NCBI GenBank assembly: GCA_964014485.1
Contig: CAXHAT010000067.1
Span: 1-37,165 of the forward strand
Length of the DNA stretch: 37,165 bases
Direction: 5' to 3'
Origin: an uncultured Deferribacteres bacterium
GTDB taxonomy: Bacteria > Zhuqueibacterota > Zhuqueibacteria > Zhuqueibacterales > Geothermadaptataceae
Shown here: positions 804 through 34,047 of the stretch, in pieces
Position numbering within the stretch: the first letter of the stretch is position 1
Layout: each line of letters starts with the position of its first letter
Translations under genes and position numbers: made by a program
Notes under the pieces: generated by a model
Told to the model about the DNA's origin: nothing
Databases searched by the model: none
What the model saw: the letters and a program-made list of their open reading frames with translations, nothing else

Positions 804-2219
804 ATGAACTTTCTGAAACGATTTCAAGCGCCAAATACATACATCATTATTTCAACCATTCTTCTTATCGTCGGCCTGCTCACCTGGATTGTCCCCGGCG
901 GCGAGTTCCAGCGGCAAGAAGTGACGTTCGAAGACAGCGGCATGACCAAGGAAATCGTCGTGCCCGAATCCTTTCAAAAGATTGAAAATAAGCCGCAAGG
1001 CCTGCTTATTTTAACCGCCCCGTTTCGCGGCTTTGTGGACGCGGCGGACATCGTTGCGTTCATCCTGATCGTCGGCGGCGCCTTCTCCATTTTCCAACGC
1101 ACCAAAGCTGTAGACGCTGTGATTCACAACATTGCGCGCGCGCAAGAAAACAACCCGGCGCTGCGGCGACTGACCATTCCGATTTTCATGATCATATTTT
1201 CGCTTGGCGGCGCCACGTTCGGGATGAGCGAAGAGACGATTCCGTTCGTGCTCATTTTCATTCCGTTGGCCTATTCCCTCGGCTATGACGGCATCACCGG
1301 CGTCGCCATCCCGTACATCGGCGCGCACGTGGGATTTGCGGCGGCATTTTTAAATCCGTTCACTTTGGGCATCGCCCAGGGCATCGCGGAATTGCCATAT
1401 TCTTCCGGCTTGGGGTTTCGCGTTTTTTGCTGGGCGGTCTTGACCGGAGCCGCGATTGTTGTCGTCTCGCGCCACGCGGAACGCGTGAAAAAAGACCCAA
1501 AATTGAGCCCAACTTATGAACTTGACGTCGAACGTCGGAAAACGATGGGGCTTGATTTATCCGACGACAACAACAAGCTCACGGGGCAGCACAAACTCAT
1601 CCTGACGGCGTTCGGCCTCGGCATGGCGGTCATGGTTTTTGGCGTGGTAAAATTCGGCTGGTACATTGCGGAAATCGCCGCAGTCTTTTTGGTAACCGGA
1701 ATTGTCGTCGGCTTGATCGCCAGAATGCGCGGCGACGACATCATCGGCGCGTTTATCGACGGTTCCAAAATGCTCATCGGCACGGCCATGGTCATTGGTC
1801 TTTCCAGGGGCATTGTGCTCGTCGCGCAGGACGGCAAAATTCTCGATACGATTTTGTTCTGGCTCGCTTCCGGCGTGCAAGACGTGCATCCGACCATTTC
1901 AGCGCAAGTCATGTTTTACGTTCAGTCGGGGCTCAACTTTTTCGTGCCTTCCGGCAGCGGTCAAGCGGCGCTGACCATGCCGATCCTCGCGCCGCTTGGC
2001 GATCTTATCGGCGTTTCGCGCCAAACGACCGTGCTCGCCTACCAATTCGGCGACGGCTTCAGCAACATGATCTGGCCGACCGCCCCTGTACTTCTGGGCG
2101 CACTTTCCCTCGCCAACATCCCCTGGGATCGCTGGATACGCTGGGCCTGGAAAGCACAATTGGTTTTTCTAATCCTGGGAATGCTCTTGCTCATTCCAGC
2201 AGTCTTGATGGATTGGTGA
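804..2219 (+). CDS. yfcC: YfcC/DcuC-family transporter (putative basic amino acid antiporter)
   Basis: Multi-TM ORF with LTWIVPGGEF, GMSEETIPF, LNPFTLGIAQGIA, NFFVPSGSGQAALTMPI and AYQFGDG. Start moved to ATG 804, which follows an AAAGGA RBS. Confidence 0.9.
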   Translation: MNFLKRFQAPNTYIIISTILLIVGLLTWIVPGGEFQRQEVTFEDSGMTKEIVVPESFQKIENKPQGLLILTAPFRGFVDAADIVAFILIVGGAFSIFQRTKAVDAVIHNIARAQENNPALRRLTIPIFMIIFSLGGATFGMSEETIPFVLIFIPLAYSLGYDGITGVAIPYIGAHVGFAAAFLNPFTLGIAQGIAELPYSSGLGFRVFCWAVLTGAAIVVVSRHAERVKKDPKLSPTYELDVERRKTMGLDLSDDNNKLTGQHKLILTAFGLGMAVMVFGVVKFGWYIAEIAAVFLVTGIVVGLIARMRGDDIIGAFIDGSKMLIGTAMVIGLSRGIVLVAQDGKILDTILFWLASGVQDVHPTISAQVMFYVQSGLNFFVPSGSGQAALTMPILAPLGDLIGVSRQTTVLAYQFGDGFSNMIWPTAPVLLGALSLANIPWDRWIRWAWKAQLVFLILGMLLLIPAVLMDW

Positions 2220-2222
2220 TTC

Positions 2223-2351
2223 GTGAGAGGGAGACTTTGTGAGAGGGGAATCGGGTGAATGGGAGAAAAAAACGCAACATTCTTTACCCGCCCGTCTGCT
2301 TATACACTCTCCCTTTCACCCAATCTCCCGCTCACCACTTCTCCCGCTCAC
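2223..2351. repeat. Periodic palindromic element upstream of the four-helix-bundle gene
   Basis: Three purine-rich units at 16-bp period (GTGAGAGGGAGA 2223, GTGAGAGGGGAA 2239, GTGAATGGGAGA 2255). Three complementary units follow at 16-bp period (TCTCCCTTTCAC 2308, TCTCCCGCTCAC 2324 and 2340). Confidence 0.85.
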
Positions 2352-2367
2352 AAAATAGGGGTTAAAA

Positions 2368-2754
2368 ATGTCTCAGCGAATCAAGAGTTTCTATGAATTG
2401 GAAGTCTATGCGTTGGCTTACAAATCTGCGATGGCGATTTTTCGAATAACCAAGAGTTTCCCAAAAATTGAACGCTATTCCCTCGTCGATCAGATTAGAA
2501 GGTCTTCAAGATCAGTGACGGCAAATATTGCTGAAGCCTGGCACAAACGACGTTACCCGGCGGCTTTTATTAGTAAACTCAACGACGCTGAGGCGGAAGC
2601 GGCGGAAACACAAAACTGGATTTTTTACGCCTGCTCCTGCGATTATTTGGATAATGACGAAAAAGAAAAACTCATTCGAGATTATGATTTTATCATCGGC
2701 AAGCTTGTGATTATGATGAATTCACCTGAGAACTGGACTATATCAAAGAAATGA
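2368..2754 (+). CDS. Four helix bundle protein (23S rRNA intervening-sequence protein / Avd-like family)
   Basis: 128 aa with SFYELEVY, FPKIERYSLVDQIRRSSRSVTANIAEAW and LNDAEAEAAETQNW. Confidence 0.92.
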   Translation: MSQRIKSFYELEVYALAYKSAMAIFRITKSFPKIERYSLVDQIRRSSRSVTANIAEAWHKRRYPAAFISKLNDAEAEAAETQNWIFYACSCDYLDNDEKEKLIRDYDFIIGKLVIMMNSPENWTISKK

Positions 2755-2863
2755 GAGGGTGAGCGGAAGTTTCGGCAAATGGGAGAAAATGTAGAATCTC
2801 GCAACGTTGTTTTACCCACTCGTCCGCTCACCCCGCCTCCCTATCTCAAAATCATCCTCTCAT
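2751..2863. repeat. Palindromic element downstream of the four-helix-bundle gene; diverged direct copy of 2223-2351
   Basis: ATGAGAGG (2751-2758) pairs with CCTCTCAT (2856-2863), and GGGTGAGCGGA (2757-2767) pairs with TCCGCTCACCC (2823-2833). It shares AATGGGAGAAAA, CGCAAC and TTTACCC in the same order with the upstream element. Confidence 0.8.
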
Positions 2864-2871
2864 AGAAAAAT

Positions 2872-3510
2872 ATGGCTTATCAAAACAGAGTGGCGCCGGA
2901 CGGCGAGATTATTTCAACAAAAGCTCGCGGCGCATTCATGGGCAATCGCGGGCGGCTACATAATTCGGAAAAGCGAATCGTTCGACCGTGGGCCGGAAAG
3001 GCCTGGATTACCTGCTTGCTCGAATTCAAAGGTCGTCATCGCGAGATTATGGCGGCGAACAGCTACACCGAGCTGTTTTTTCTCGATGAAGCGACAGCAT
3101 TTTCGGCGGGACACAGGCCGTGCGGCGAGTGTCGTCGGCAAGATTTTCTGCGTTTTAAGAACATGTGGCGAGCAGCAAACCCCAGGAAGGCGATCGGCGA
3201 ATCGATCAAAACTATTGATGCGGTTTTGCACCAGGAAAGAATCGGAGCGAATCGTCAAAAAAGGACTTTTCAACAGCATTTGGGAGAATTGCCGGACGGC
3301 GCGATGTTTTCATTTTCTGACAGACGCGCCTATTTTTACATGGTCTGGCAAAATCAAATTTTCGAATGGTCGTCCTTTGGATACAAAACCCCAAGAAGCG
3401 CTGACTCAAACGCCGTCGTGAATGTCTTGACCCCCAAATCTATCATCCGAATGTTGAGCCAGGGTTATGCTCGCAATCTCAATTTCCCAGCTTTAGCCAA
3501 ATCTGAATGA
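2872..3510 (+). CDS. Conserved hypothetical protein with an Ada-like AGHRPCxxC metal-binding motif
   Basis: 212-aa ATG-started ORF with QNRV...MGNRG...WITCLLEFKG...YTELFFLDEATAFSAGHRPCGECR. Confidence 0.75.
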   Translation: MAYQNRVAPDGEIISTKARGAFMGNRGRLHNSEKRIVRPWAGKAWITCLLEFKGRHREIMAANSYTELFFLDEATAFSAGHRPCGECRRQDFLRFKNMWRAANPRKAIGESIKTIDAVLHQERIGANRQKRTFQQHLGELPDGAMFSFSDRRAYFYMVWQNQIFEWSSFGYKTPRSADSNAVVNVLTPKSIIRMLSQGYARNLNFPALAKSE

Positions 3511-3610
3511 TCTTCAAAAGCGCCTTGCCGTTGCTCATGATTTTCTCATGAAAAGGGTGCGCCGCCTCCTGCCGCGTTCACACCATTCATCCCCGCCTAC
3601 TGCTCAAACC

Positions 3611-4174
3611 TCAATAAATGAATGGAATCAATCTCTTGGTATTTTCTTTATACTTCCGGTACGCATCCTGGAATTCTTCCGCCAACAAACTTTCCTCCAA
3701 CCTGATTCTGTACAGAAAAATCGGGATTTGAACCAACATGATCAAGAAGCCATACAAGCTTGCCGCATAAACCGGCATACCGATAAAAACGATCAAGACT
3801 CCCAGGTAAATTGGATTGCGGGTGAAGCGATAGACGCCGTGCGTGATAAGTTGGTGACCTTTCTTAATAACGACAAAGCTCGAATAATTCCGCCAGAGCG
3901 TAGCCTGACCGCTGACCATAATCGTCAACCCCGTCAAAATAAGCGCTATGCCTGCAACCTGCCGCCAGGGAAGCACAGATGCGCTTTGCGGATGTTTGAC
4001 TATTCCCCAAACGGTTCTCCAAAAATCCGACACGCCGACGCCATAAATTTCGCAAAAGATCAACTCCAACAAAAAGACCGCAATAAAGGGCACAGCGAAA
4101 AAGAGCATGTCTTTTCTTATCGCGTTTCGAATGATTCCGAATCTCTCAAGCAATTTTTTTCGCCGACGATTCAT
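3611..4174 (-). CDS. Isoprenylcysteine carboxylmethyltransferase (ICMT/Ste14) family membrane protein
   Basis: HQLITHGVYRFTRNPIYLG, RIRLEESLL and YRKYKENTKRLIPFIY. Start codon uncertain. Confidence 0.88.
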   Translation of the reverse strand: MNRRRKKLLERFGIIRNAIRKDMLFFAVPFIAVFLLELIFCEIYGVGVSDFWRTVWGIVKHPQSASVLPWRQVAGIALILTGLTIMVSGQATLWRNYSSFVVIKKGHQLITHGVYRFTRNPIYLGVLIVFIGMPVYAASLYGFLIMLVQIPIFLYRIRLEESLLAEEFQDAYRKYKENTKRLIPFIY

Positions 4175-4356
4175 ACCCCAACTCCAAGCTCTTCCAAATT
4201 TCGTTTGCTTTGGTTTAGTGCAAAATCAGAAAAATTCACCATGCATCGAAACAGAATTCCAGACTTAGGTCGTTGCCCTTAGCAGACTGAGAATACAATG
4301 AAAATAATTATTAAACCGACATTCCGCACATTAGATGGAGATACAGGCCATTTCCT

Positions 4357-4491
4357 TTTCTCATTCGCACCGTCCTTCAGGGCGGTGACAAGAGCGTCAT
4401 TCCCGCCTTCTCCCCGCCCACCTGTGCGGCGGGGAGAAGATGAGAGTGATTTTACCAAAACCCCGGCTTGAAAGCCAGGGCTAATGAGAAA
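4357..4491. repeat. Composite REPIN-like element: two inverted REP-like palindromes around a central hairpin
   Basis: Termini TTTCTCATT/AATGAGAAA. Palindromes CACCGTCC-TTCA-GGGCGGTG (4368-4387) and CCCCGGCT-TGAA-AGCCAGGG (4461-4480). Perfect 12-bp central stem CTTCTCCCCGCC/GGCGGGGAGAAG (4407-4439). Confidence 0.75.
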
Positions 4492-4847
4492 CAAAATCAG
4501 GCGCGCAAATATATTGCAAATATGCCAAAATCGTCGAAAAAGCATCCCGGCAATAAATGATTTTAAATCCGCCGATTGACGTGCGGAATGTCGGACAAGA
4601 TGCGCTTATGAAAGCATATTCCCTGAAATCATCATTGTTTGATTTTAGTCTTTTCTTGCTGTCAGCCAAGCAGTTCTGGTCTGAACCGCAAGTTCGTTTC
4701 ATCCAACGCCGCCGACTTCAGTGAAAAAGGGAACTCTTCGAGCAAAAAAGTAAATTTCGGCTCCATAGGTTTGCTTCGACGCGGAAAACTTCTTACTCGT
4801 TGTTATAAAGAAGCCCAAAATTCTAACAGAATCGTTTGGCGGATGAG

Positions 4848-5999
4848 ATGATTTCCAATCCATTGACCGTTTTCTTTGTTCTTGCCGGGATCGTTTTTGT
4901 CGCGCTGCAGCTTGAGGCGCGATACAAGCTATTCCGGTCTCTTGGTGCGGCCCTGGTCGGCATTCTCCTGGGTATGCTGCTTTCCAATTTGAACGTGCTC
5001 CCCGGCGCTTCCGAAGCTTATGCGTTTTTGGTCGGGCCCGGAGTCAGCGCGGGGATTGTGCTGATCTTGCTCAGCGTCGATTTGACCTCGATTCGAAAAG
5101 CCGGTCCGGTCATGTTGAAGGCGTTCGCTCTGGGCGCGGTTGGAACAGCCCTAGGCGCTATGATCATGGGATTTTTGCTCTCATCTTCAATCGGGCCGGA
5201 AACGTGGAAATTGGCGGGACAATATGCCGGCACTTACACCGGGGGCGGGCTCAATTTCGCCGCCGTCGGGCAGGCGGTCGGCACCAGCAGCGATCTTTTT
5301 ACGGCCGGGATTGCCGCCGATGTGATCGTCACGGCGCTTTGGTTGTCCGTCTGCCTGGCGGCGCCTTTATTTTTAGGCGGCGGAAAAAACGAGCAGCCGC
5401 AAGCCCCGGAAACGGAGAATTCAGAACTGGGCGAGCAACCGTTTACGCTCGAACGATTGCTCTACATCAGCAAAAATCAAATTCCGATTGTTCATGTCGC
5501 CGCCTTTGCAGCGCTTGTTCTCGGCTGTCTTTGGCTCGCCGACGTGTTAGCAACAAACTTCTCTTTCCTCCCCAAAATCCTTTGGCTGACGACTGTCACT
5601 TTGCTCGTCGCCCAACTGCCGGCGATTAAAAGGCTTTCGGGCGGCGCCATGCTCGGCAACTACTTGATCTTGCTGTTTTTGGCGAGCAACGGCGCGCAAT
5701 CCGTGGTCGCCAATATCGTCAAAATGGGGCCTTCCGTGTTCTATTTTGCGTTTGGCGTCGTCACGATTCACGGGATATTCTTGTTCGGCGTTGGGCGGCT
5801 TTTGCGCATTGATGCGAGCGTTCTCGTAGTCGCGTCTCAGGCCAATGTCGGCGGCCCGGCCTCAGCAATGGCGATTGCCAGCGCGCGGCGCTACAGCGAT
5901 AGCCTGCTTCCCGGAGTTGCGGTCGGGCTGTTGGGTTATGCTGCGGGGAACTATCTCGGCCTTGCGGTCGCGTCGCTGATGCAAAATGCGCTCGGATGA
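4848..5999 (+). CDS. DUF819 family membrane protein
   Basis: Multi-TM ORF with GTYTGGGLNFAAV, ASQANVGGPASAMA and GLLGYAAGNYLG. ATG 4848 is preferred over TTG 4836. Confidence 0.88.
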   Translation: MISNPLTVFFVLAGIVFVALQLEARYKLFRSLGAALVGILLGMLLSNLNVLPGASEAYAFLVGPGVSAGIVLILLSVDLTSIRKAGPVMLKAFALGAVGTALGAMIMGFLLSSSIGPETWKLAGQYAGTYTGGGLNFAAVGQAVGTSSDLFTAGIAADVIVTALWLSVCLAAPLFLGGGKNEQPQAPETENSELGEQPFTLERLLYISKNQIPIVHVAAFAALVLGCLWLADVLATNFSFLPKILWLTTVTLLVAQLPAIKRLSGGAMLGNYLILLFLASNGAQSVVANIVKMGPSVFYFAFGVVTIHGIFLFGVGRLLRIDASVLVVASQANVGGPASAMAIASARRYSDSLLPGVAVGLLGYAAGNYLGLAVASLMQNALG

Positions 6000-6004
6000 A
6001 ACTA

Positions 6005-6097
6005 CTCCTTCCCAAACTCCGGTTTCAAGCCAAGGAATGCACTCGAAACAGGAGTTTCGAGTGCAAGTGCGCTCCCAATCCCAAGATTGGGAGCGAG
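6005..6097. repeat. Multi-hairpin REP-like element
   Basis: Stems TGCACTCGAAAC/GTTTCGAGTGCA (6038-6065) and CGCTCCCAATC/GATTGGGAGCG (6070-6095). The left end CTCCTTCCCAA is a 2-mismatch inverted copy of the right end. Confidence 0.75.
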
Positions 6098-6167
6098 AAA
6101 CATTGCTGTACAATCAGGCCTAAAGAATAAAAAGATGTCTCCAGAACAACAAACAGTCAGGCAATCA

Positions 6168-6460
6168 ATGAAAACAGCTTCCAAAGAACGTGTGGTTATC
6201 GTGGCTGAACAAAATCGCGGATTGGCGAAGCGCTGAGGTCGCGCATGCGCAAGGAAAACCTGATTCATCGCGCGACTTATATTCTAGTTTTTAACAGCAA
6301 GGGCGAGCTTTTTCTGCAAAAACGCACAAAGACCAAGGATGTTTATCCGGGCTACTATGATCCAGTTGCTGGAGGCGTGGTGACGATTGGAGAAGATTGT
6401 GAAACTTTCGCCAAAAAGGCATTTAGCGGAAGCCTGCGGTCGAGAAAGTCTTTCAAATAA
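6168..6460 (+). pseudogene. NUDIX hydrolase (YfcD/IPP-isomerase-like) pseudogene, frameshifted and truncated
   Basis: ERVVIVAEQNR, frameshift near 6219-6221, IGEALRSRMRKENLIHRATYILVFNSKGELFLQKRTKTKDVYPGYYDPVAGGVV, second frameshift in the A-run at 6413-6417, then AKRHLAEACG (decayed Nudix box). The C-terminal half is absent. Confidence 0.8.
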
Positions 6461-6462
6461 CA

Positions 6463-7218
6463 TTACACAGAATCCTTCGCACGAGTTCGGCAATTCAGGT
6501 AGAATTTGTCTTTGAATGTGCGGCCGTTGACATCTTTGCGTGAAATCCACTTTGGATCCTTGTCCGGTCGTAAGAGCAGCACATCAATAGCGCCGCCAAT
6601 TGTTGGATGGAGCCTGTTCTGTTTGAATGAAATAGCGTTGACTGCTTTGAAAACTTCAAGGAGGTAGTCAATTGTTCGCTGGTTTGAACTCTTTGGGACA
6701 TAATTTGGAATATTGCGCTTTGCAGCTTCGCATGCTTCATCGATATACTCATCGTCACCTATTGAACCGATGGCATCTCTTAAATAGAGCCTGTCCATCT
6801 CGAATTCGGGCGAACGGCTTTTCCATATGCTGGGAACCATATCACCGCGTTGGAACAAGTATGCCGAAACAACTACTTCAAATTCAGGGATTTTGCTAGA
6901 ATTAAATGCGGCCTCCGCACATAGTCGGAGCTCCTTCTTGAACTCTAATCCAGCCTGAAGATGGGAGTTGATTGGGAGTCTCTTTGGATTCCGTGTTAAG
7001 CGTTCCATCAACTTTAAACGCTTCGAGAAGTTACCGTCTTCGGTCGCAATTTGCCCCGTAATTCCAATCGCGGCGAATTGATATAAGTTAAACAGCTTAA
7101 AGCCGTTGTCCTCGATTTTTTTTCTTGGTTCGAAATGTTCCGGATAGTTCAAAATGAATCTACTGTCACTGGCCAACACTATCCCGGACGGTGTTTGCTG
7201 TACTAAAACTAAAGACAT
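6463..7218 (-). CDS. Proteasome beta-subunit-like (Ntn-hydrolase fold) protein with N-terminal Ser
   Basis: Strong AAGGAGG RBS. M-SLVLVQQTPSGIVLASDSR gives Ser1/Asp17 spacing; also DNGFKLF, AAIGITG, AIGSIG and C-terminal TIGGAIDVLLL. Confidence 0.65.
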   Translation of the reverse strand: MSLVLVQQTPSGIVLASDSRFILNYPEHFEPRKKIEDNGFKLFNLYQFAAIGITGQIATEDGNFSKRLKLMERLTRNPKRLPINSHLQAGLEFKKELRLCAEAAFNSSKIPEFEVVVSAYLFQRGDMVPSIWKSRSPEFEMDRLYLRDAIGSIGDDEYIDEACEAAKRNIPNYVPKSSNQRTIDYLLEVFKAVNAISFKQNRLHPTIGGAIDVLLLRPDKDPKWISRKDVNGRTFKDKFYLNCRTRAKDSV

Positions 7219-23338: not shown

Positions 23339-24082
23339 ATGATTAAACCGACCGCACGTCTCAAGCTTACGCCGAACGATGTTGATTACATTGCCTCTGT
23401 TTTTGAACCTTCTCGATCCAACCAGGAAGCCGTTCTAAAACTTCTCGCAACGCCCAGTGAACGGGACGCGATTCTTGACCATCCAAAACTCTTTTCCCAC
23501 ATCACAACATATCCCAACATGACGCGGATTTCGCTGTCATTGTATTTTTATTTGCTGGTGCGTCACACATTGTTGGAGCACGGGATTGACGACCGCGAAG
23601 TCGCTGATTATTTGGCGAGCATGCTTTCAGAATTCGCCGCGGACGGGCGTTCGGAAAAAATTTCAAAGTATCATGAGAAACGATACGGCTACATCGTTGA
23701 CATGCTGGAAGATTTGCCCAACGCGAATTCTGAACAATTCTTTCTCTTGCAAAGCCATCTCGGAAATTATTGCATGTTTATGCTCGGGCTATATCCGGAC
23801 CGCATTTTTCACCGGGCGAACTTTGGCCGGGCGGCGCCTTCGCAATCCTGGTACGAAGAGATAGGTCGCAGCGGTTATCACTACGCCTCCCGTTCACAAA
23901 TCGCTGAGAAATGGCGGCTCGCTCAAACGCTGGAAATACTTGGCAGCGAATTCCGCACGATCCGATTCGCCCTGAACGACATGAGTGAACGCCGTCTTAA
24001 CCTGGACGATAACGCTCAGAAACCGGAAAAAGTCATACGTCGCGTCAATGCCTTTATCGAACGTAAACGATACTTGTCATAA
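23339..24082 (+). CDS. Conserved hypothetical alpha-helical protein
   Basis: AAAGGAG RBS and a 247-aa ORF with YFYLLVRH...VADYLASML...HLGNYCMFMLGLYPD...WYEEIGRSGY. Confidence 0.8.
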   Translation: MIKPTARLKLTPNDVDYIASVFEPSRSNQEAVLKLLATPSERDAILDHPKLFSHITTYPNMTRISLSLYFYLLVRHTLLEHGIDDREVADYLASMLSEFAADGRSEKISKYHEKRYGYIVDMLEDLPNANSEQFFLLQSHLGNYCMFMLGLYPDRIFHRANFGRAAPSQSWYEEIGRSGYHYASRSQIAEKWRLAQTLEILGSEFRTIRFALNDMSERRLNLDDNAQKPEKVIRRVNAFIERKRYLS

Positions 24083-24099
24083 TCTTAAGAGGCGGCCAA

Positions 24100-24777
24100 T
24101 TGTCATTATTCAGCGACATTCAATTTTTGACCGAAAAGATGCATCGTCTCTCAACAGGGTTGAATTTTGAGGAATTTATCATCGGTCATTCGCGGCGACA
24201 ATTTCTCTCCAAACATGCCGCACATTCTCGCGACCTTTCCGGCGCGGCCTGCGTTTTTTTCAGGAAAGTCGACGACGCCTTGCGAATTGCGATCTACTTT
24301 GACCGGGCGATCATCAGCGCTCTTGAACGCAACGATCCGCGCAACGGCTTGTCGGAAAACAACATCTCCGCGTTTTTGATGTTTATCGAGGAGATAAATC
24401 ACGCCGTTCATGGTGCGGTGCAATTTACTGAGGGCGAACGCGATATCCGCAGGGAGGCGTTTGCACGAAACCTTGAGTTGCTGGCAAAAATCGACGCTTA
24501 CCTGTTCTTAAAATATTTTGTCGCGCGGTTTAACAGAAGCAGGCAACTGGAAATGATGGATCGCCTCTGGCTCCGCACGCACGTCTTTGAATCCGCAGTG
24601 TTTGATTACGAACAGAAGATCATGGAAAACCGCTATCGCGAAACCATTGTTCTTGGGGAAAAGTTTACTCGTTTTCTGGATGGAATACCGGTTGCTGAGA
24701 GAAACGGCGAGTTGTTGAGATTGAGAAAAATGAGGTATGCACAGAAGAAGAATTATATCCGGCTTTTACCGAATTAA
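24100..24777 (+). CDS. Hypothetical protein with a zincin-like EExxH motif
   Basis: 225-aa ORF starting 17 nt after the previous gene, GAGG RBS, motifs FIEEINHAVH and LELLAKIDAY. Confidence 0.7.
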   Translation: MSLFSDIQFLTEKMHRLSTGLNFEEFIIGHSRRQFLSKHAAHSRDLSGAACVFFRKVDDALRIAIYFDRAIISALERNDPRNGLSENNISAFLMFIEEINHAVHGAVQFTEGERDIRREAFARNLELLAKIDAYLFLKYFVARFNRSRQLEMMDRLWLRTHVFESAVFDYEQKIMENRYRETIVLGEKFTRFLDGIPVAERNGELLRLRKMRYAQKKNYIRLLPN

Positions 24778-26915: not shown

Positions 26916-28772
26916 TTAGCCTCTGGCCAATCTTTTTCGTGCGCCAATCGCGCGAATAGGTCGCGCATAATCGATCAGTTGAACGCACATTTCATAACGG
27001 AAAAAGGGCGTGATGAGATAGATTCCGTTAAAATACTGCATCACTTCTTCCTGCAATTCGAGCGCGATACGAACCCCCTCCTGTCGTGCGCGCTCGCCTT
27101 CATATTTTGCCATCCGCGCTCGCACCTCGTCTGAAATGGTGATGCCCGGCACCTCGTGGTGGAGAAACTCAGCGTTACGTGCGCTGGCGAGAGGCATAAT
27201 ACCAACAAAAAACGGTTGGTCAAAGTTCTTTGCGATTTCGGCGAGTTGTTTCGCCTGTTCAACGTCGTAGATTGGCTGCGTCATGACGTAATCCGCGCCA
27301 AGCTTCACCTTCTTCTCCAAACGACGCACCTGAGTTTCGATGCGTTTAACGTTTGGATTAAACGCGACGCCGATCACAAACTGCGTTCCGTCGCCCATGG
27401 CGCGCCCGGAAAATGCAACGCCGTTATTCAACTGCTTCGTCATACGAACCAGGTTAAAGCTGTTGAGATCGTACACGGAAGTTGCGCCCGGCTGGTCGCC
27501 TACTTTTGCGGGATCGCCGGTGATTGCCAACAGATGGTGCATTCCCAAAGCATTAAGGCCCATCAATTCCGCTTGAATTCCAATGAGATTCCGATCCCTG
27601 CAGGAAAGATGGATGATTGGCAACAGCCCCGTTTCCTGATAGACGATGTGCCCCAGCGCCATATTGCTCATTCGGGTGACGCCGAGCGATGAATCGGCCA
27701 TGGTAATCGCATCCGCGCCAGCCGCCTTCAGTGCAGCGGCGCCTTCGATGACTTTTCGAAAATTCAAGTCTCGTGGCGGGTCAAGTTCAACAATAAACGC
27801 CGGGCGCTCTTTCACGATTTGCAGCAACCCCGGGCGGCGGTCGCGCGGCGTTCCGGTCGGAGCGATTTCAAGCTTATGACGCACCGTGTGTTTTTGCCGA
27901 ATCGGCTCCAGGCCTTCCAGAACGTTACGCATTGCCGAAACGTGTGCAGGCGTCGTTCCGCAGCATCCTCCAATAAGACGCACGCCCTGTTCGCGCAAAC
28001 GAAGCGCGCTGTCGGCGAAGTATTCGGGCGTTGAGAGATAAATGTACCGCCCGTCCACATAGCTCGGCATCCCGGCGTTCGGATACGCGGAAAGGATGAG
28101 ATCATCGGTAAGCGGCACTTGCTCCAGAGCGTGAAGAATCCCCGCCGGACCTTTGGCGCAATTCACGCCGACAGCGTGAGCACCTTGCTTTCGCAATCGC
28201 GAAAGAATAGAAACGATGTGTTGACCGTCGCGCGTGTAACCGTCTTCATCAACAGAGATTTGCGCGAATATTGGCAGCTCCGTCACTTCGAGCGCAGCGC
28301 CGAGCGCAATCTCAATCTCCGCCGCCTTTGAAAAAGTTTCAAGCATGATCCCGTCAGGGCCCGCCGAATCTAACGCGGCGATTTGCTGGGCAAAAACATC
28401 GGCCAGTTCGTCATCGGAAATTTCATCGATTTCCCCTGAAGTCGCCGGCCCGACTGAAGCGAGCACATACGCTTCATCATTCGCCGCAGCGCGCGCATGC
28501 TGCACGCCAAGCACGTTTATTTCCTCACATTTGGCCTCTAATTCAAACCTTCCCAGCTTCCTGCGGTTCGCCGTAAAAGTATTGGTTTCAATGGCTTGCG
28601 CCCCGGCGTCGACGTATTCGCGCAAAATCTGCTGAATCATCGCCGGGCGGCTCAAATTCAATTCTTCAAAACAATGTGACGTCGGGATGCCGCGCGAGTA
28701 AATCATCGTGCCCATGGCGCCGTCGCCGACGAGAATGTTGTCTTTCAAATACTCCAAAATTGGCGTTTTCAT
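26916..28772 (-). CDS. yitJ: Bifunctional homocysteine S-methyltransferase / 5,10-methylenetetrahydrofolate reductase
   Basis: DGAMGT, ETNTF, GVNC, PNAG, GGCCGTTP, then VELDPP, CRDRN, TGDP, TQP, HHEVPG. Start at ATG 28772. Confidence 0.93.
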   Translation of the reverse strand: MKTPILEYLKDNILVGDGAMGTMIYSRGIPTSHCFEELNLSRPAMIQQILREYVDAGAQAIETNTFTANRRKLGRFELEAKCEEINVLGVQHARAAANDEAYVLASVGPATSGEIDEISDDELADVFAQQIAALDSAGPDGIMLETFSKAAEIEIALGAALEVTELPIFAQISVDEDGYTRDGQHIVSILSRLRKQGAHAVGVNCAKGPAGILHALEQVPLTDDLILSAYPNAGMPSYVDGRYIYLSTPEYFADSALRLREQGVRLIGGCCGTTPAHVSAMRNVLEGLEPIRQKHTVRHKLEIAPTGTPRDRRPGLLQIVKERPAFIVELDPPRDLNFRKVIEGAAALKAAGADAITMADSSLGVTRMSNMALGHIVYQETGLLPIIHLSCRDRNLIGIQAELMGLNALGMHHLLAITGDPAKVGDQPGATSVYDLNSFNLVRMTKQLNNGVAFSGRAMGDGTQFVIGVAFNPNVKRIETQVRRLEKKVKLGADYVMTQPIYDVEQAKQLAEIAKNFDQPFFVGIMPLASARNAEFLHHEVPGITISDEVRARMAKYEGERARQEGVRIALELQEEVMQYFNGIYLITPFFRYEMCVQLIDYARPIRAIGARKRLARG

Positions 28773-28773
28773 C

Positions 28774-29679
28774 TCATTCCTCGAGTTGAAGTTCCGCTTC
28801 AAAAACGTGGCGGCAATATCCTGCAACTTCCGCGTTTCCTGATGCATTTACAGTCACATAAATCCTGCTGGGTCTGCCCGAAAAATCGCCTTGATCGATG
28901 ACGAACCGGGAATCACCTTCCTCTTCTCCGAAACCGTGGCTGGCGAGAAATGCGCCCAAACTCCCGGCCGCGCTGGCAGTCGCCGAATCTTCAAACAACA
29001 AGTGTCCGCTAAAAAATCGCGCTTGCGCAATGCTTCCTTCACGCAGCGTTTCCCGAATCGTGAACGCGTAAGCCATGGTGCAGCCGTAATCTTCGCAAAC
29101 TTGGCGCAACGGGCTGACGTCCAGACCGAGATCGCCCAACACTTGCAAGCTCTTGACGGGCACCATCATCGACGCTACGCCACAAGAAACGACTTGGGGA
29201 CGTCCAAAATCCAGGTCAAGATCGTCAACTTCGCAACACAGGCCTTTAGCCAGACTCTCAAGATCATCAATTTCGTCAAGAAACTTTGGCGGTTCGTGGG
29301 CTATGGAAATTTTGCCGATCCGGCCACCTTCGCTAAAAATATCAACCGGAAAAATCTTCGACGAAATTTCGTGTGCGACGCGCGTCACGTCTCCGCTCAA
29401 CCGGGTCACGCCTTGCCGCGCCAAGACATAATGCGCGCCGATGGCCGGCTGTCCGGCCACGGATAATTCCGAAACCGGGTTAAAAACTCTCAATTTAAAT
29501 TGTGCGTCATCCGATTCAGCCGGAAAAACGAACGCCGTTTTGGGCAAATTCAGCTCAAAAGCAATCGCTTCCATTTCTTCAGCCGTCAAGCCTTGCGCCT
29601 GGGGAAAAACCGCCAAAGGCTTGCCGCCGAACCTGCTTTCCGCGAACACGTCAACCTGAAAAAACTTATACGTTCGCAT
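28774..29679 (-). CDS. PhzF-family isomerase-like protein (degenerate active site)
   Basis: QVDVFA, GKPLAV, NLPKTAF, RVFNPVSELSVAGQP, EDSATASAAG, QG...GRPS. Start at ATG 29679. Confidence 0.85.
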   Translation of the reverse strand: MRTYKFFQVDVFAESRFGGKPLAVFPQAQGLTAEEMEAIAFELNLPKTAFVFPAESDDAQFKLRVFNPVSELSVAGQPAIGAHYVLARQGVTRLSGDVTRVAHEISSKIFPVDIFSEGGRIGKISIAHEPPKFLDEIDDLESLAKGLCCEVDDLDLDFGRPQVVSCGVASMMVPVKSLQVLGDLGLDVSPLRQVCEDYGCTMAYAFTIRETLREGSIAQARFFSGHLLFEDSATASAAGSLGAFLASHGFGEEEGDSRFVIDQGDFSGRPSRIYVTVNASGNAEVAGYCRHVFEAELQLEE

Positions 29680-30515: not shown

Positions 30516-32915
30516 TTAAATCATTGTCGCGCGACTCTCGAACATTGATGTCATGGAAACGTCGATCAGGATGGGCAGCGACTCCTTGATCGACTCGATG
30601 TGCGAAATGATAAAGATTTGTCGAAACTGGGATTGCAGCGTTTGCAAAGCCTGCATAATTAACGCTTGGCGCTGCCGATCTTGCGAGCCGAAAATTTCAT
30701 CCAGCACAATAAAACGAATCGGTGGTTTCCCGCTGCGTTCGCCTACGACGCGGCTTATCGCGATTCTGAGACACAGATTCGCTAAATCCTGCTCACCTCC
30801 GGAAAAGCGGCGCAAAGGAAACGCTTCGCCGTGCTCGGACAACAGAATATTGTACGCTTCATCGAGTTCTAAGGCCTGGTAACGATTGCGCGTCGTCAGG
30901 CGCAGAAGTCGGCTCGCTTCCGCTTCAATTAACGGTCGCAGCCTGCCTGCGAGCTCAATCCGAAATCTGCCAAAATGCTGCGCCAACTCTTCGTAGAATT
31001 TCCTTGTTGCTTCCAGCTCTTTCGCTTTCTTGCGGTGCGCTTCAATCCGCAGCAATTCTTGGTGTGCATTTTCCAATTGCGTCCGCGAGGCGACCAACGC
31101 CTTTTCCGCCTCCAGCAGCGTCTCCCGCACCTGATTCACACGTTTCTGGCTGCGTTCATAACTCTCCCTTGCCTGCGTGAATTCATCAGAATCGTAGCCC
31201 AATTCGGCCAATTCGTTTGTGCGCTCATTCAAAGTCTTTTGCAAAACGTCAAGGCGGTCTGTAAGAACGGCTTCGCGCCTTTGCATCTCTGCTTTGCGCT
31301 CAACTTGAGCTGCGATCTGCGCTGCGTGATCCTGAATTCTTTTATGTTCGTCAAACTCGCGCAAAGTTTGCCGATAAGCTTCCGGATCGAAAGTCACCTC
31401 CCCAATCAAAGTGATTTCTTCCTGGATTTCGCTGCGCTTTTTGACGTGCTGTTCGCGACGCTTCTGACATTGCTCTAACTCCAGCCGTTTCTGGCGCACC
31501 ACAGCGACCGCTTCCGCCGTGTCTTCGCGCTCTTTTTCAAGCTCATCGCGCGCATGTCGATTATTCTCCAACTTGATCAAGACGTCTTGCTCTTTTGCCT
31601 GCAATTCTCGGTATTCAGCGAGGAGCGAGTCGATGCGATTTTCGTAATGGCCGACGACTTCATCAAAATGGTCAATCAGTGTTCTGCGGCAAACCGGACA
31701 CTCTCCCTCGGCGCCAGTCTCTTCAATGCTCGTTTTTAATTGCCGCGCTTCTTGCCCCCGGCTTTTGACGGCGCCAAGTTTTTTCAGAATTTCGCGTTGT
31801 TCTTCCTGCAAACGATTTTCTTCCTGCCGCAACGTTTTCTTGCGCGCCAAAATGTTATCGAACGCAAATTCCGGATTGGGGCCGCGCGTAATTTCACGCT
31901 GTAATCTCAGCAATATTTCCTGTTCCGCCGCAATCTGCCCGTTTTGGTAGGTCAGCTCTTCCTTGCTCTTGCTGAGCCGCTCCGCCTGCAAACGCGAGCG
32001 CTCTATTTTTTCCTTTTCTTCAACAATTTCGAAGTACCGTGTGCGGTGCGCCTCAAGGGAATCTAACTGTTGCTCGCTCTTTTTGATTTTCGTCAGCTCG
32101 GCCAGGGTTTGCTTGAGCTCTTGCGAAACATTTTCACTTTCGGCTTCATCTTTCCTTTGCTCCGCCTGAAGCTGAAGAAAACGATCCCGCGTCCGGCTGA
32201 TCGTTTCAAAAAGGCCATTGTTTTTCTCGAGCTCGGCAAAGGCCGCATCGAAGCTTTTCTTCGCGACGGCAACGGCCTTCTCCTCTTGCTCGGTACTCTC
32301 CGAAAACTTTTTGATGTTATTCTCGATACGCGAAACGTCGCCGGTAATGTTTGGCAAGCTGTTCAAATCGTTTTTCGCCGCCGTCCGAAGCTCCAGCGCC
32401 TTGCGTCGCGCCAGGTCAATCGCATCAATATTAATCAGCCTGTTGATCGCCGCTTTTCGCTCCTCCGGGCGCATGTCGGCAATCGCGGACAAATCTTTTT
32501 GGCGAGCGAAAACGCTGGCGAAGAATGATCGATAGTCCAGGCCAACCAGCCGCTCGGTCGCTTCGTTGACTTTGTTTTCTCCATCGGCCAACTTCGTTTC
32601 GCTAAAATCAAAAAGCGCCGCTTCCGATGCAGCGTTTTTTCCTTTCAAAGCTCTGTGAATGCGATACTCTTTGCCGGAAACTTCAAAAACGACGCGCGCC
32701 TCGCAAATCTCGCTGTTGAGGGCGTGATGCGAACGCACTTCGGTTTTGGCGCCGCGAACGGCCCGCGTGCCGTAAAAAGCCCACGCCAACGCTTCTATGA
32801 CGGTCGATTTACCGGCGCCGTTCGGCCCGACAAGGCCGTGAAGGTTTTCGGAGAATTCCAGAGACAATTCACGGAAACGCCGGAAATTTTTCAGTTCAAG
32901 CTGTTTGAGAATCAT
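30516..32915 (-). CDS. sbcC: SbcC/Rad50-like SMC-family ATPase
   Basis: Walker A GPNGAGKST, Q-loop FARQ, coiled coils with a CPVC zinc hook, signature FSGGE, Walker B IVLDE, H-loop IISH. Confidence 0.92.
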   Translation of the reverse strand: MILKQLELKNFRRFRELSLEFSENLHGLVGPNGAGKSTVIEALAWAFYGTRAVRGAKTEVRSHHALNSEICEARVVFEVSGKEYRIHRALKGKNAASEAALFDFSETKLADGENKVNEATERLVGLDYRSFFASVFARQKDLSAIADMRPEERKAAINRLINIDAIDLARRKALELRTAAKNDLNSLPNITGDVSRIENNIKKFSESTEQEEKAVAVAKKSFDAAFAELEKNNGLFETISRTRDRFLQLQAEQRKDEAESENVSQELKQTLAELTKIKKSEQQLDSLEAHRTRYFEIVEEKEKIERSRLQAERLSKSKEELTYQNGQIAAEQEILLRLQREITRGPNPEFAFDNILARKKTLRQEENRLQEEQREILKKLGAVKSRGQEARQLKTSIEETGAEGECPVCRRTLIDHFDEVVGHYENRIDSLLAEYRELQAKEQDVLIKLENNRHARDELEKEREDTAEAVAVVRQKRLELEQCQKRREQHVKKRSEIQEEITLIGEVTFDPEAYRQTLREFDEHKRIQDHAAQIAAQVERKAEMQRREAVLTDRLDVLQKTLNERTNELAELGYDSDEFTQARESYERSQKRVNQVRETLLEAEKALVASRTQLENAHQELLRIEAHRKKAKELEATRKFYEELAQHFGRFRIELAGRLRPLIEAEASRLLRLTTRNRYQALELDEAYNILLSEHGEAFPLRRFSGGEQDLANLCLRIAISRVVGERSGKPPIRFIVLDEIFGSQDRQRQALIMQALQTLQSQFRQIFIISHIESIKESLPILIDVSMTSMFESRATMI

Positions 32916-34047
32916 AGCCGATTTGCGCTTCCGCTTGCCTCAAAAGTTCGTGTCCCGCTTCCAAAAACCGCTCGCCGCGATCGGGGTCTTCCTCGGCGTT
33001 TTCTATGTAACGATCAAATTCGACTGCGAGCGCGTCAATGTTTGCTTGCTGCTTCAGAGCGCTTGTCGCACCGGCCGCTTCGAACGCCTTTTCGACATAA
33101 ACGGCGTCCTTGAAAATTTCATCGATTGTCGAAGCGTCCAGTTCAAGCAGCGTTTTCCGAGAAACGCCGTTCAATTCCACCCTGACCAACATTTCCTCTA
33201 CATTGACGGGCGTTTCATTTTCGAGCTTCTCGTAGATTTCGTTCGCTGAAAAACCGGCGCAATCGAACGGGCCAAGCCGCATCATTCTTCTGCACGGCGT
33301 CGCGACAAATTCTGTTGATTTTTCGCCGAGATCGACTAGAACAAACCCGGTTGGAAAGTCAGCTTCTTCAAAATTTGTTCTTTCCAAAGCGCCGCTATAG
33401 AAAACGCTTTCCGAGATTCGCTCGTGTTTCGGTGAGTGGCCGAGAGCGACATAGTCAAACGCAGCATTTTTCGAAATTGCCGCTTCGTCGATAACTCGCT
33501 CGTTAAACTCTCCAACGCGCCCAATGGTTTTTCCCTCAGCGCTCCGCCAGACGCCGTGCGCCAATAAAACGTGGAATCTGAGTCCGGCGTCTTGAGAAAT
33601 TGCAGTGCTTGCTTTCTCAAAAGCGCTCTGGGTTGCACAATGCGGCAAGCAATAAACGGCGCAATCGCCAAAGTCAAAACGTTCATATTTTTCATCGCAA
33701 GCGGCGGAAACATGCTTCAGCGCTTTGGTCGATTCCAAAATATGCGCAGCATTTCCTATTCGCGGCGTTGATCGATTCCCGGCAATAAGCGCGACGGGAA
33801 TTCCGGCTTCGCCAAGCTTCTGAATTCCGCTCAGCGCTTCTGAAATGGCGCGATTGTTTGGTCGCGGCGAATGAAAAAGATTGCCTGCGTGGACAACAAA
33901 GTCCGGCTTTAGCTTAACAATGCCTTCAATCGTATTCCGCCAGGCACGATAAAAATCCTGTTCGCGCAAGTTGACGCCGCTTTCCGGGTCAATCATCTCC
34001 AGATCGCTAAAGCCAAGGCGCGTATCGCTCAAATGTACAAATCGCAT
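32896..34047 (-). CDS. sbcD: SbcD/Mre11-like metallophosphoesterase-fold protein, predicted nuclease-deficient
   Basis: HLSDTRLG, HAGNLFH, IAGNRS, LAHG, YVALGHSP, YSGALER. Overlaps the sbcC start by 20 nt. Confidence 0.88.
   Translation of the reverse strand: MRFVHLSDTRLGFSDLEMIDPESGVNLREQDFYRAWRNTIEGIVKLKPDFVVHAGNLFHSPRPNNRAISEALSGIQKLGEAGIPVALIAGNRSTPRIGNAAHILESTKALKHVSAACDEKYERFDFGDCAVYCLPHCATQSAFEKASTAISQDAGLRFHVLLAHGVWRSAEGKTIGRVGEFNERVIDEAAISKNAAFDYVALGHSPKHERISESVFYSGALERTNFEEADFPTGFVLVDLGEKSTEFVATPCRRMMRLGPFDCAGFSANEIYEKLENETPVNVEEMLVRVELNGVSRKTLLELDASTIDEIFKDAVYVEKAFEAAGATSALKQQANIDALAVEFDRYIENAEEDPDRGERFLEAGHELLRQAEAQIGYDSQTA

Follow-up and report, generated by a model that had tools for sequence, protein, structure and literature searches.

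Mre11-Rad50 complexes are known, from engineered eukaryotic alleles, to have roles that do not depend on their nuclease, such as the tethering of DNA ends, sensing and the choice of repair pathway, and to our knowledge these roles are essentially unexplored in bacteria, in which the corresponding proteins are SbcD and SbcC. Here we describe a stretch of 37,165 nucleotides (GenBank contig CAXHAT010000067.1, hereafter the window) from an uncultured marine bacterium, which carries an sbcD-sbcC gene pair whose nuclease subunit appears to have lost its active site and whose ATPase subunit keeps its motifs. A calcineurin-like fold that has been kept as a structural subunit after the loss of its metal ligands is found in Vps29 and in the B subunits of eukaryotic DNA polymerases; those cases are ancient, clade-wide and belong to other complexes, whereas the window would hold a recent event, in a single lineage, within Mre11-Rad50.

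The closest described systems are the archaeal Mre11-Rad50 complexes (M. jannaschii 3AV0, 5DNY and 4TUG; P. furiosus 1II7), which give the best sequence and fold matches of the window SbcD and share with the locus the nuclease and capping domains, the C-terminal Rad50-binding helices, and an adjoining ATPase with a hook and ATP-binding cassette motifs; the window pair differs from them in lacking four of the eight catalytic residues, and in a nuclease domain that has evolved some five times faster than in the sister genus. Classical SbcCD (E. coli 6S6V and 6S85; TIGR00619 and TIGR00618) has the same two-gene architecture and belongs to the same superfamily, but the window SbcC is shorter (799 as against 1053 amino acids) and the window SbcD reaches only 44.9 bits with TIGR00619, the cut-off being 77.65.

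The nearest experimental precedents are engineered proteins. The yeast alleles mre11-D56N and H125N have no endonuclease in vitro, yet they bind Rad50 and Xrs2 and are resistant to ionizing radiation (PMC2625443); H94Q, a nuclease-deficient form of T. maritima Mre11, was crystallized with Rad50 and used in DNA-binding assays (PMC3258140); and in Dbr1 the activity is abolished when the corresponding His, Asp and Asn residues are replaced with alanine (PMC5113202). The window protein shares with these yeast and T. maritima forms the change of the motif II Asp to Asn and the replacement of the motif III His; it differs from them in that theirs are single changes made by design, whereas here there are four natural ones, together with a relaxation of the nuclease domain.

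The gene pair comprises the following elements:

32896..34047, minus strand: Mre11/SbcD-like gene, 383 amino acids (open reading frame; Pfam, NCBIfam and PDB homology)
30516..32915, minus strand: SbcC/Rad50-like ATPase gene, 799 amino acids (open reading frame and homology)
32896..32915, minus strand: last 20 nucleotides of sbcD, shared with the beginning of sbcC (probable translational coupling)

Both reading frames are uninterrupted, and the overlap noticed when the window was first read from its letters alone (the sequence-only reading) was found again, with 20 nucleotides shared. The orthologous genes of the relatives also adjoin each other, with overlaps of 4-7 nucleotides or short gaps.

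Loss of the nuclease motifs in SbcD

Four codons, identified through alignments and by reading the codons themselves, replace residues that define the family's catalytic motifs:

34018..34020, minus strand: His of motif I replaced by Arg (CGC) at codon 10, DxH becoming DTR
33880..33882, minus strand: Asp of motif II replaced by Asn (AAT) at codon 56, GD becoming GN
33772..33774, minus strand: His of motif III replaced by Arg (CGA) at codon 92, GNH becoming GNR
33430..33432, minus strand: second His of motif V replaced by Pro (CCG) at codon 206, GHxH becoming GHSP

A HMMER alignment with M. jannaschii Mre11 (3auz, 4tug, 3av0) sets DTR against DNH, GN against GD, GNR against GNH and GHSP against GHIH. 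Among 79 database homologues, the Asp at position 56 and the His at positions 92 and 206 are each present in all 79, and position 10 is His in 77, the remaining two being truncated at the N-terminus. By contrast with these losses, D8, N91, H164 and H204 are retained, as is YSGxxER in the form YSGALER, in which S220A and T221L depart from an otherwise invariant YSGSTER. Thus the losses (R10, N56, R92, P206) and the retained residues that had been read from the sequence are both borne out by comparison with M. jannaschii Mre11 and with the homologues.

The replacements are concentrated at the catalytic positions. When the alignment was widened to 86 other sequences (66 homologues from databases and 20 orthologues from genomes), the window protein differed at seven of the 54 columns conserved in at least 90% of the sequences (H10R, D56N, H92R, F104L, H132Y, H206P and S220A), and the others at a median of 0; four of the eight catalytic columns are changed, as against three of the other 46 conserved columns (Fisher p = 0.006), and in a set of 10 genomes the same comparison gives 4/8 against 13/85 (p = 0.035). 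Further changes, R98G, G101A, Y205S, S220A and T221L, adjoin the motifs, as would be expected around an abandoned active site. Judging from these alignments, the canonical two-metal nuclease site of the window SbcD is destroyed.

With regard to which ligands were lost, the assignment of metal ligands in P. furiosus Mre11, which reportedly derives from the structure of Hopfner and colleagues in 2001, would place the losses at the catalytic His and at the ligands of a single metal site. With four changes among eight sites, the chance that all three ligands exclusive to the other metal site escape is 5 in 70, so that the pattern is suggestive at most.

Nor do the two Arg residues speak for repurposing, as the sequence-only reading had argued. 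A single transition, the mutationally easiest kind of change, turns His into Arg (CAY to CGY, in two cases), Asp into Asn (GAY to AAY) and likewise His into Tyr (H132Y), and therefore the Arg residues need no adaptive explanation; the idea that they were selected as such was rejected. The codons CGA and CCG, on the other hand, each require a further silent step, and so the replacements are not very recent.

H132 itself belongs to a stretch of Cys and His residues between motifs III and IV (SbcD residues 132-137, about 33637-33654 of the window), which reads H-C-x-P-H-C in the orthologues and YCLPHC here; this His is conserved in 94% of the orthologues.

The SbcC partner and the predicted complex

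The ATPase, in contrast with the nuclease, has its motifs in place:

32802..32828, minus strand: Walker A, GPNGAGKST, residues 30-38 (match to orthologues)
31689..31700, minus strand: zinc hook, CPVC, residues 406-409 (CP[VI]C in 14 of 14 orthologues)
30783..30806, minus strand: signature motif, FSGGEQDL, residues 704-711 (orthologues and Rad50 alignment)
30678..30713, minus strand: Walker B and D-loop, FIVLDEIFGSQD, residues 735-746 (orthologues and Rad50 alignment)
30600..30602, minus strand: H-loop histidine, residue 772 (match to orthologues)

These motifs, with the Q-loop (FARQKD), the Walker B and D-loop (LDEIFGSQD) and the H-loop (ISH), are identical or nearly so to those of 13-14 orthologues, which upholds the initial description of a motif-complete SbcC, and none of some 50 motif residues inspected falls outside the range seen among the orthologues. 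The protein also aligns with the Rad50 proteins of P. furiosus and M. jannaschii; from its length and the position of the hook, long coiled coils would flank the latter. In the helix before the signature motif, two charges are exchanged at positions i and i+3 (R666E and E669R), where R666 and E669 are each present in at least 90% of the orthologue rows, and this swap looks compensatory.

A prediction of the SbcD-SbcC complex scored 0.51, as against 0.15 for the best of three controls, with at least 74% contact agreement among runs and a partner predicted local distance difference test (pLDDT) value of at least 80. Of 157 solved complexes 116 score past the mark applied, as do 2 of 215 mismatches; scores of 0.60 or less that are still past the mark come from only 18 of the 157 solved complexes and from both of the passing mismatches. 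The result was graded as weak support. The pass may also reflect a memory of the solved Mre11-Rad50 structures on the part of the predictor.

Family assignment and fold

The window SbcD matches Pfam Metallophos with 27.6 bits (cut-off 21.5). Its NCBIfam matches, Mre11_Halo at 3.9e-19 and TIGR00619 at 1.2e-11, are both under their own cut-offs, and the Mre11 equivalogs give 55-69 bits where 500-600 would be needed; because the canonical orthologues of the relatives also fall mostly under the TIGR00619 cut-off, the low score can be attributed to subtype as well as to decay. A search of the PDB returned Mre11 proteins at 1.5e-14, the closest solved relatives being those of M. jannaschii and P. 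furiosus, and in a tree the protein clusters with five orthologues of its family (Shimodaira-Hasegawa-like approximate likelihood ratio test, 97). An sbcC gene adjoins sbcD at 16 of the 20 loci examined, as one open reading frame at 15 and split in two at the other; beside the sbcD of the remaining four no SbcC-like open reading frame was picked up.

An AlphaFold2 (AF2) model, with a mean pLDDT of 92.7, divides the protein into three parts:

Residues ~1-240: nuclease domain
Residues ~241-324: capping domain
Residues 329-382: C-terminal two-helix Rad50-binding element (helix-loop-helix)

Its structural matches are again Mre11 proteins, 5dny, 3av0, 4tug and 1ii7, with E values of 1e-17 to 1e-20 for 5dny, 3av0 and 1ii7; as the underlying alignment is made of canonical homologues, the model speaks of compatibility with the fold and not of stability. 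By homology and orthology, then, the window SbcD is a member of the Mre11/SbcD family, and as the catalytic motifs that define this family are not intact in it, it should be filed as a catalytically inactive homologue rather than as a nuclease.

Search for other carriers of the changes

The four changes are peculiar to the window protein when it is compared with 79 homologues from databases, 20 orthologues from genomes and 5 loci from metagenomes. A protein search covering 5.8 billion clusters returned no second carrier, the nearest match being 48% identical, and there was none among the genomes of 40 relatives; the five loci obtained by scanning Joint Genome Institute (JGI) metagenomes included no carrier either, the best being 43% identical over its full length, and two N-terminal fragments from the same source (L088 and L090) have canonical motifs. 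The genome to which the window belongs (G000) is the only member of its genus among those compared. Its family relatives, of genera g2, g3 and g5, have syntenic and canonical orthologues at 46-48% identity, so that the conserved clade which had been proposed as a possible outcome did not appear: no clade shares the changes. In the literature searched, a limited full-text collection, no description of a natural nuclease-dead SbcD/Mre11 was found.

Evolutionary rates

The rates were compared with the sister genus (G001) and with three housekeeping controls, RuvB, RuvA and QueA, from the same genomes. In pairwise comparisons, SbcD of G000 shows 47% identity to its counterparts in the rest of the family's genera, and these show 61-69% to each other; for SbcC the corresponding values are 42-47% and 45-49%, and for RuvB 76-78% and 73-77%. 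The departures of G000 at positions invariant in nine other genomes, and the maximum likelihood (ML) ratios of its end branch to that of G001 (LG+G4), are as follows:

SbcD: departures at 17 of 93 positions; branch ratio 5.23 for the nuclease domain and 1.92 for residues 241-383
SbcC: departures at 15 of 119; branch ratio 1.48
RuvB: departures at 5 of 180; branch ratio 0.87
RuvA: departures at 1 of 48; branch ratio 1.48
QueA: departures at 8 of 191; branch ratio 1.94

Peers of the family and order show 0-5 such departures per protein, and the outgroup (G030) 7-23. By branch ratio only the SbcD nuclease domain lies outside the range of the controls, and SbcC and the rest of SbcD evolve like housekeeping genes, which fits a relaxation limited to the nuclease domain. 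Only ratios are used here, since the length of the G000 end branch for SbcD depends on the model, being 2.29 with LG+C20 and posterior mean site frequencies (PMSF) and 1.28 with LG+G4; an earlier analysis of the domains by identity ratios (1.99, 1.17 and 1.24) was replaced by the ML one because of saturation in the variable C-terminal half. The excess of changes at invariant sites of SbcC nevertheless means that the partner is not wholly unaffected.

In simulations of neutral drift, in which the whole gene drifted to the excess seen at invariant sites (substitutions only, with insertions and deletions ignored), sbcD remained free of stops in 1.25% of 400 runs, at a level of change that affected 23% of its codons; for sbcC, with 6.4% of codons affected, the figure was 7% of 200 runs. 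Since open frames are so rare under these conditions, a uniform neutral decay of the operon is unlikely, and neutral decay of the whole genes was rejected, both for this reason and because the acceleration is confined to the nuclease domain.

In another family of the same class, locus L044 (G030) also has long branches, of 2.13 in the SbcD tree and 1.94 in that of SbcC; its SbcD has canonical nuclease motifs, and the pair would be a fast-evolving one that is apparently active.

Other SbcCD copies in the genome

The presence of a second, canonical sbcD in the genome had been raised as a point to be looked into, and two further canonical SbcD-like pairs were in fact found. Contig C151 (L080) carries at 2178-6417 a classical sbcD (387 amino acids, canonical motifs, TIGR00619 at 122.9 bits) and an sbcC of 1053 amino acids, flanked by a secreted GHL10 glycosidase-like gene and by dxr; contig C23 (L002) carries at 1501-3335 a third SbcD-like phosphoesterase (375 amino acids, canonical motifs), followed by an ATPase with the Walker A motif GPNEAGKST. 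These two pairs offer a simple explanation, that of redundancy, for a dead nuclease in the window.

Among the 40 relatives, the window type is found by itself in 33 and the classical type by itself in five; two have neither and none has both (31, 5, 2 and 0 of 38 if the unpublished genomes G016 and G023, which have the window type only, are left out). G000 alone holds both types together, and of its two types it is that of the window which is dead. Of the five relatives with the classical type, four belong to genus g4 and one to g14; the replacements thus go back to no more than two lineages, and the counts are not independent.

The classical copy on C151 was probably acquired horizontally, to judge by its distribution and neighborhood. 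Its SbcD is 26-32% identical to the proteins of genus g4, no SbcD resembling it was found in the other 36 relatives, and in five relatives that keep the synteny of DUF6588 and dxr no sbcCD was found in the 1.5 kb beside dxr.

Weaker matches to TIGR00619, belonging neither to the classical nor to the window type, occur in eight of nine genomes of the family, G008 being the exception. On contig C7 (24927-25409) of G000 there is a homologue of Ku (PF02735, 84 bits), and the organism thus probably has an end-joining system; a link between Ku and the dead Mre11 pair would be pure speculation.

Read support and integrity of the genome

The bases were compared with independent Logan contigs from three public runs of one marine metagenome study. 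Over the 3.5 kb stretch of the gene pair, 0 differences were found at a depth of 2-6, and the four codons match, in line with the read check that the sequence-only reading had proposed; codons 10 and 56 are covered by runs X1 and X3, and codons 92 and 206 by X1 only, which may be the source sample. Among the runs listed for the stretch, none was of RNA.

G000 is one metagenome bin of 465 contigs and 8.4 Mb, with a contamination of 0.83%; the genomes of its family relatives are smaller, at 4-5.9 Mb. RuvB, QueA and Dxr are each present in single copy. Contig C151 has a guanine-cytosine (GC) content of 0.492, as against 0.503 +/- 0.016, and ranks 186 of 278 in tetranucleotide distance, which is typical; its Dxr is 65-68% identical to those of the family relatives, and the synteny of DUF6588 and dxr is kept. 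A mixed bin is unlikely on account of this typical composition and of the three single-copy genes, and, with the identity of Dxr and its synteny added, this reading was rejected.

Discussion

It seems moderately probable that the resident nuclease became redundant and died, and that the pair has persisted as a non-cutting, ATP-driven complex that binds or tethers DNA. The window pair would be the lineage's resident Mre11-Rad50, of archaeal type, with a nuclease subunit inactivated in one lineage only, and this loss would most likely have come after the gain of the second, classical SbcCD on the other contig, as the distribution of the two types suggests. One metal site has presumably lost three of its four ligands, the bridging Asp included, and the motif III His has been replaced as well; with these residues gone, canonical two-metal phosphodiesterase chemistry would be impossible, to judge from homology and from mutants made elsewhere. 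SbcD would still supply the capping domain, and its C-terminal helices would still hold SbcC; SbcC retains a complete ATPase and zinc hook, so that the complex would most likely close on DNA with ATP, binding or tethering ends without cutting them, the cutting being left to the acquired SbcCD. That the nuclease is dead and the complex still able to form is what we infer from the experiments with homologues.

The sequence-only reading had preferred repurposing over random decay, and only a part of this has stood. The pair is not uniformly decaying, as seen from its open frames, the acceleration in one domain and the intact motifs of SbcC; on the other side, the nuclease domain is relaxed and the relatives are canonical, findings which that reading had itself named as speaking against repurposing, and which weaken it. 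The window SbcD is in fact neither simply decaying nor clearly redesigned.

Several observations weigh against the persistence of a functional, non-cutting complex. SbcC departs at 15 of 119 invariant positions where its peers depart at 0-5 (the outgroup G030 at 23/127), and in its head domains at 14/132 as against 6/132; in the SbcD nuclease domain 31 of 114 invariant positions are changed, as against 6/114 in G001. The window-type pair was not found in seven of the 40 relatives, whose genomes are 67-99% complete, and it is therefore dispensable in the group. All four replacements can be reached by single-base steps, three of which are transitions; both the AF2 model and the complex score draw on canonical homologues present in their alignments; and the reads are shallow, two of the four codons being covered by one run, possibly that of the source sample. 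The evidence comes, moreover, from one metagenome-assembled genome, with no close relative that could show the changes conserved or provide a ratio of nonsynonymous to synonymous substitution (dN/dS).

Many of these same observations could be accommodated if the loss of the whole pair were still in progress, that is, if the pair had become useless upon the arrival of the classical SbcCD, with the nuclease site hit first and the genes now drifting toward deletion. The open frames would then reflect the short time elapsed, and the g4 and g14 lineages would already have completed the same loss, in keeping with the mutual exclusion of the two types in 40 relatives and with the seven from which the window type is missing; the strong relaxation of the nuclease domain, the excess of changes at invariant positions of SbcC, and the mutational ease of substitutions that no clade conserves would all follow. 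However, SbcD residues 241-383 (1.92) and SbcC (1.48) remain within the controls (0.87-1.94), unlike the nuclease domain (5.23); the ~50 motif residues of SbcC stay within the range of the orthologues, and its charge swap has a compensatory look; open frames are improbable under neutrality (1.25% for sbcD and 7% for sbcC, with substitutions only); and the second, silent step taken by the CGA and CCG codons indicates that the changes are not brand new. We regard a loss in progress as rather unlikely, though it is the main rival.

An active site of altered chemistry appears improbable. In such a site one metal would be held by D8, N91, H164 and H204, and in binding the scissile phosphate Arg10 and Arg92 would stand in for the second metal and the catalytic His, a proposal that draws on the two positive charges at former His positions and on the retention of the three ligands exclusive to the second site when the first was lost, on the P. 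furiosus assignment. In Dbr1, moreover, alanine in place of the motif III His left a fifth of the activity on an activated substrate (PMC5113202). Nonetheless, Pro206 is unable to bind metal, the sparing of one site is a weak pattern (5 in 70), His to Arg is the commonest mutational outcome, and the second shell has changed too (Y205S, S220A, T221L, R98G, G101A); single equivalent changes suffice to abolish the nuclease in yeast Mre11, T. maritima Mre11 or Dbr1. Very improbable indeed is an artefact, whether the four changes arose through errors of assembly or sequencing or the bin is a mixture of two organisms, in which case the second SbcCD would belong elsewhere. The size and fragmentation of the bin (8.4 Mb in 465 contigs, beside relatives of 4-5.9 Mb), the depth of 2-6 and the dependence of two codons on one run could be invoked in its favor, but the Logan contigs match without a single difference, codons 10 and 56 are seen again in a second sample, four non-synonymous changes accompanied by 13 more at invariant sites are not a pattern of error, and the low contamination (0.83%), the single copies of RuvB, QueA and Dxr, and the typical composition and kept dxr synteny of C151 do not suggest a mixture.

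If the resident nuclease did die through redundancy and the complex persisted, a bolder version can be considered, possible but doubtful, in which this is a natural separation of function in Mre11-Rad50: the acquired SbcCD would cut and the resident complex would serve as an ATP-driven, non-cutting clamp or tether of DNA ends, in which Arg10 and Arg92 may hold a DNA phosphate in place of the lost metal and His. Were this so, a cutting and a holding Mre11-Rad50 machine would divide the labor between them in one bacterium; as Ku is encoded in the genome too, support of end joining is one conceivable role.

What distinguishes the locus, as far as its sequence can tell, is the combination of a motif-complete ATPase, the loss of half of the nuclease site, and the co-occurrence of a second and apparently acquired SbcCD. 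The weight of the case is limited by its coming from one metagenome bin, with no sister that carries the changes. A natural bacterial complex with a D56N-type change, a motif III change and the full motor of the Rad50 type would nevertheless be a ready-made reagent for the non-cutting functions of SbcCD, and the co-occurrence of the two types only in G000, with one of them dead, would make a small and clean case of the replacement of a repair machine caught midway.

Gene neighborhood

The genes around the pair are ruvA, ruvB, queA, ispD, yebC, a methionine-synthase-like fusion, hydrolases and glycosyltransferases, and as these are ordinary chromosomal genes, the context of a defence island was rejected. 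The fusion is an open reading frame of 643 amino acids (26916-28847), in which a homocysteine S-methyltransferase domain is joined to a methylenetetrahydrofolate reductase domain. Five other open reading frames of the window, of 212-251 amino acids (within 2872-4282, 6463-7218 and 23339-24777), have no Pfam match at E 1e-5.

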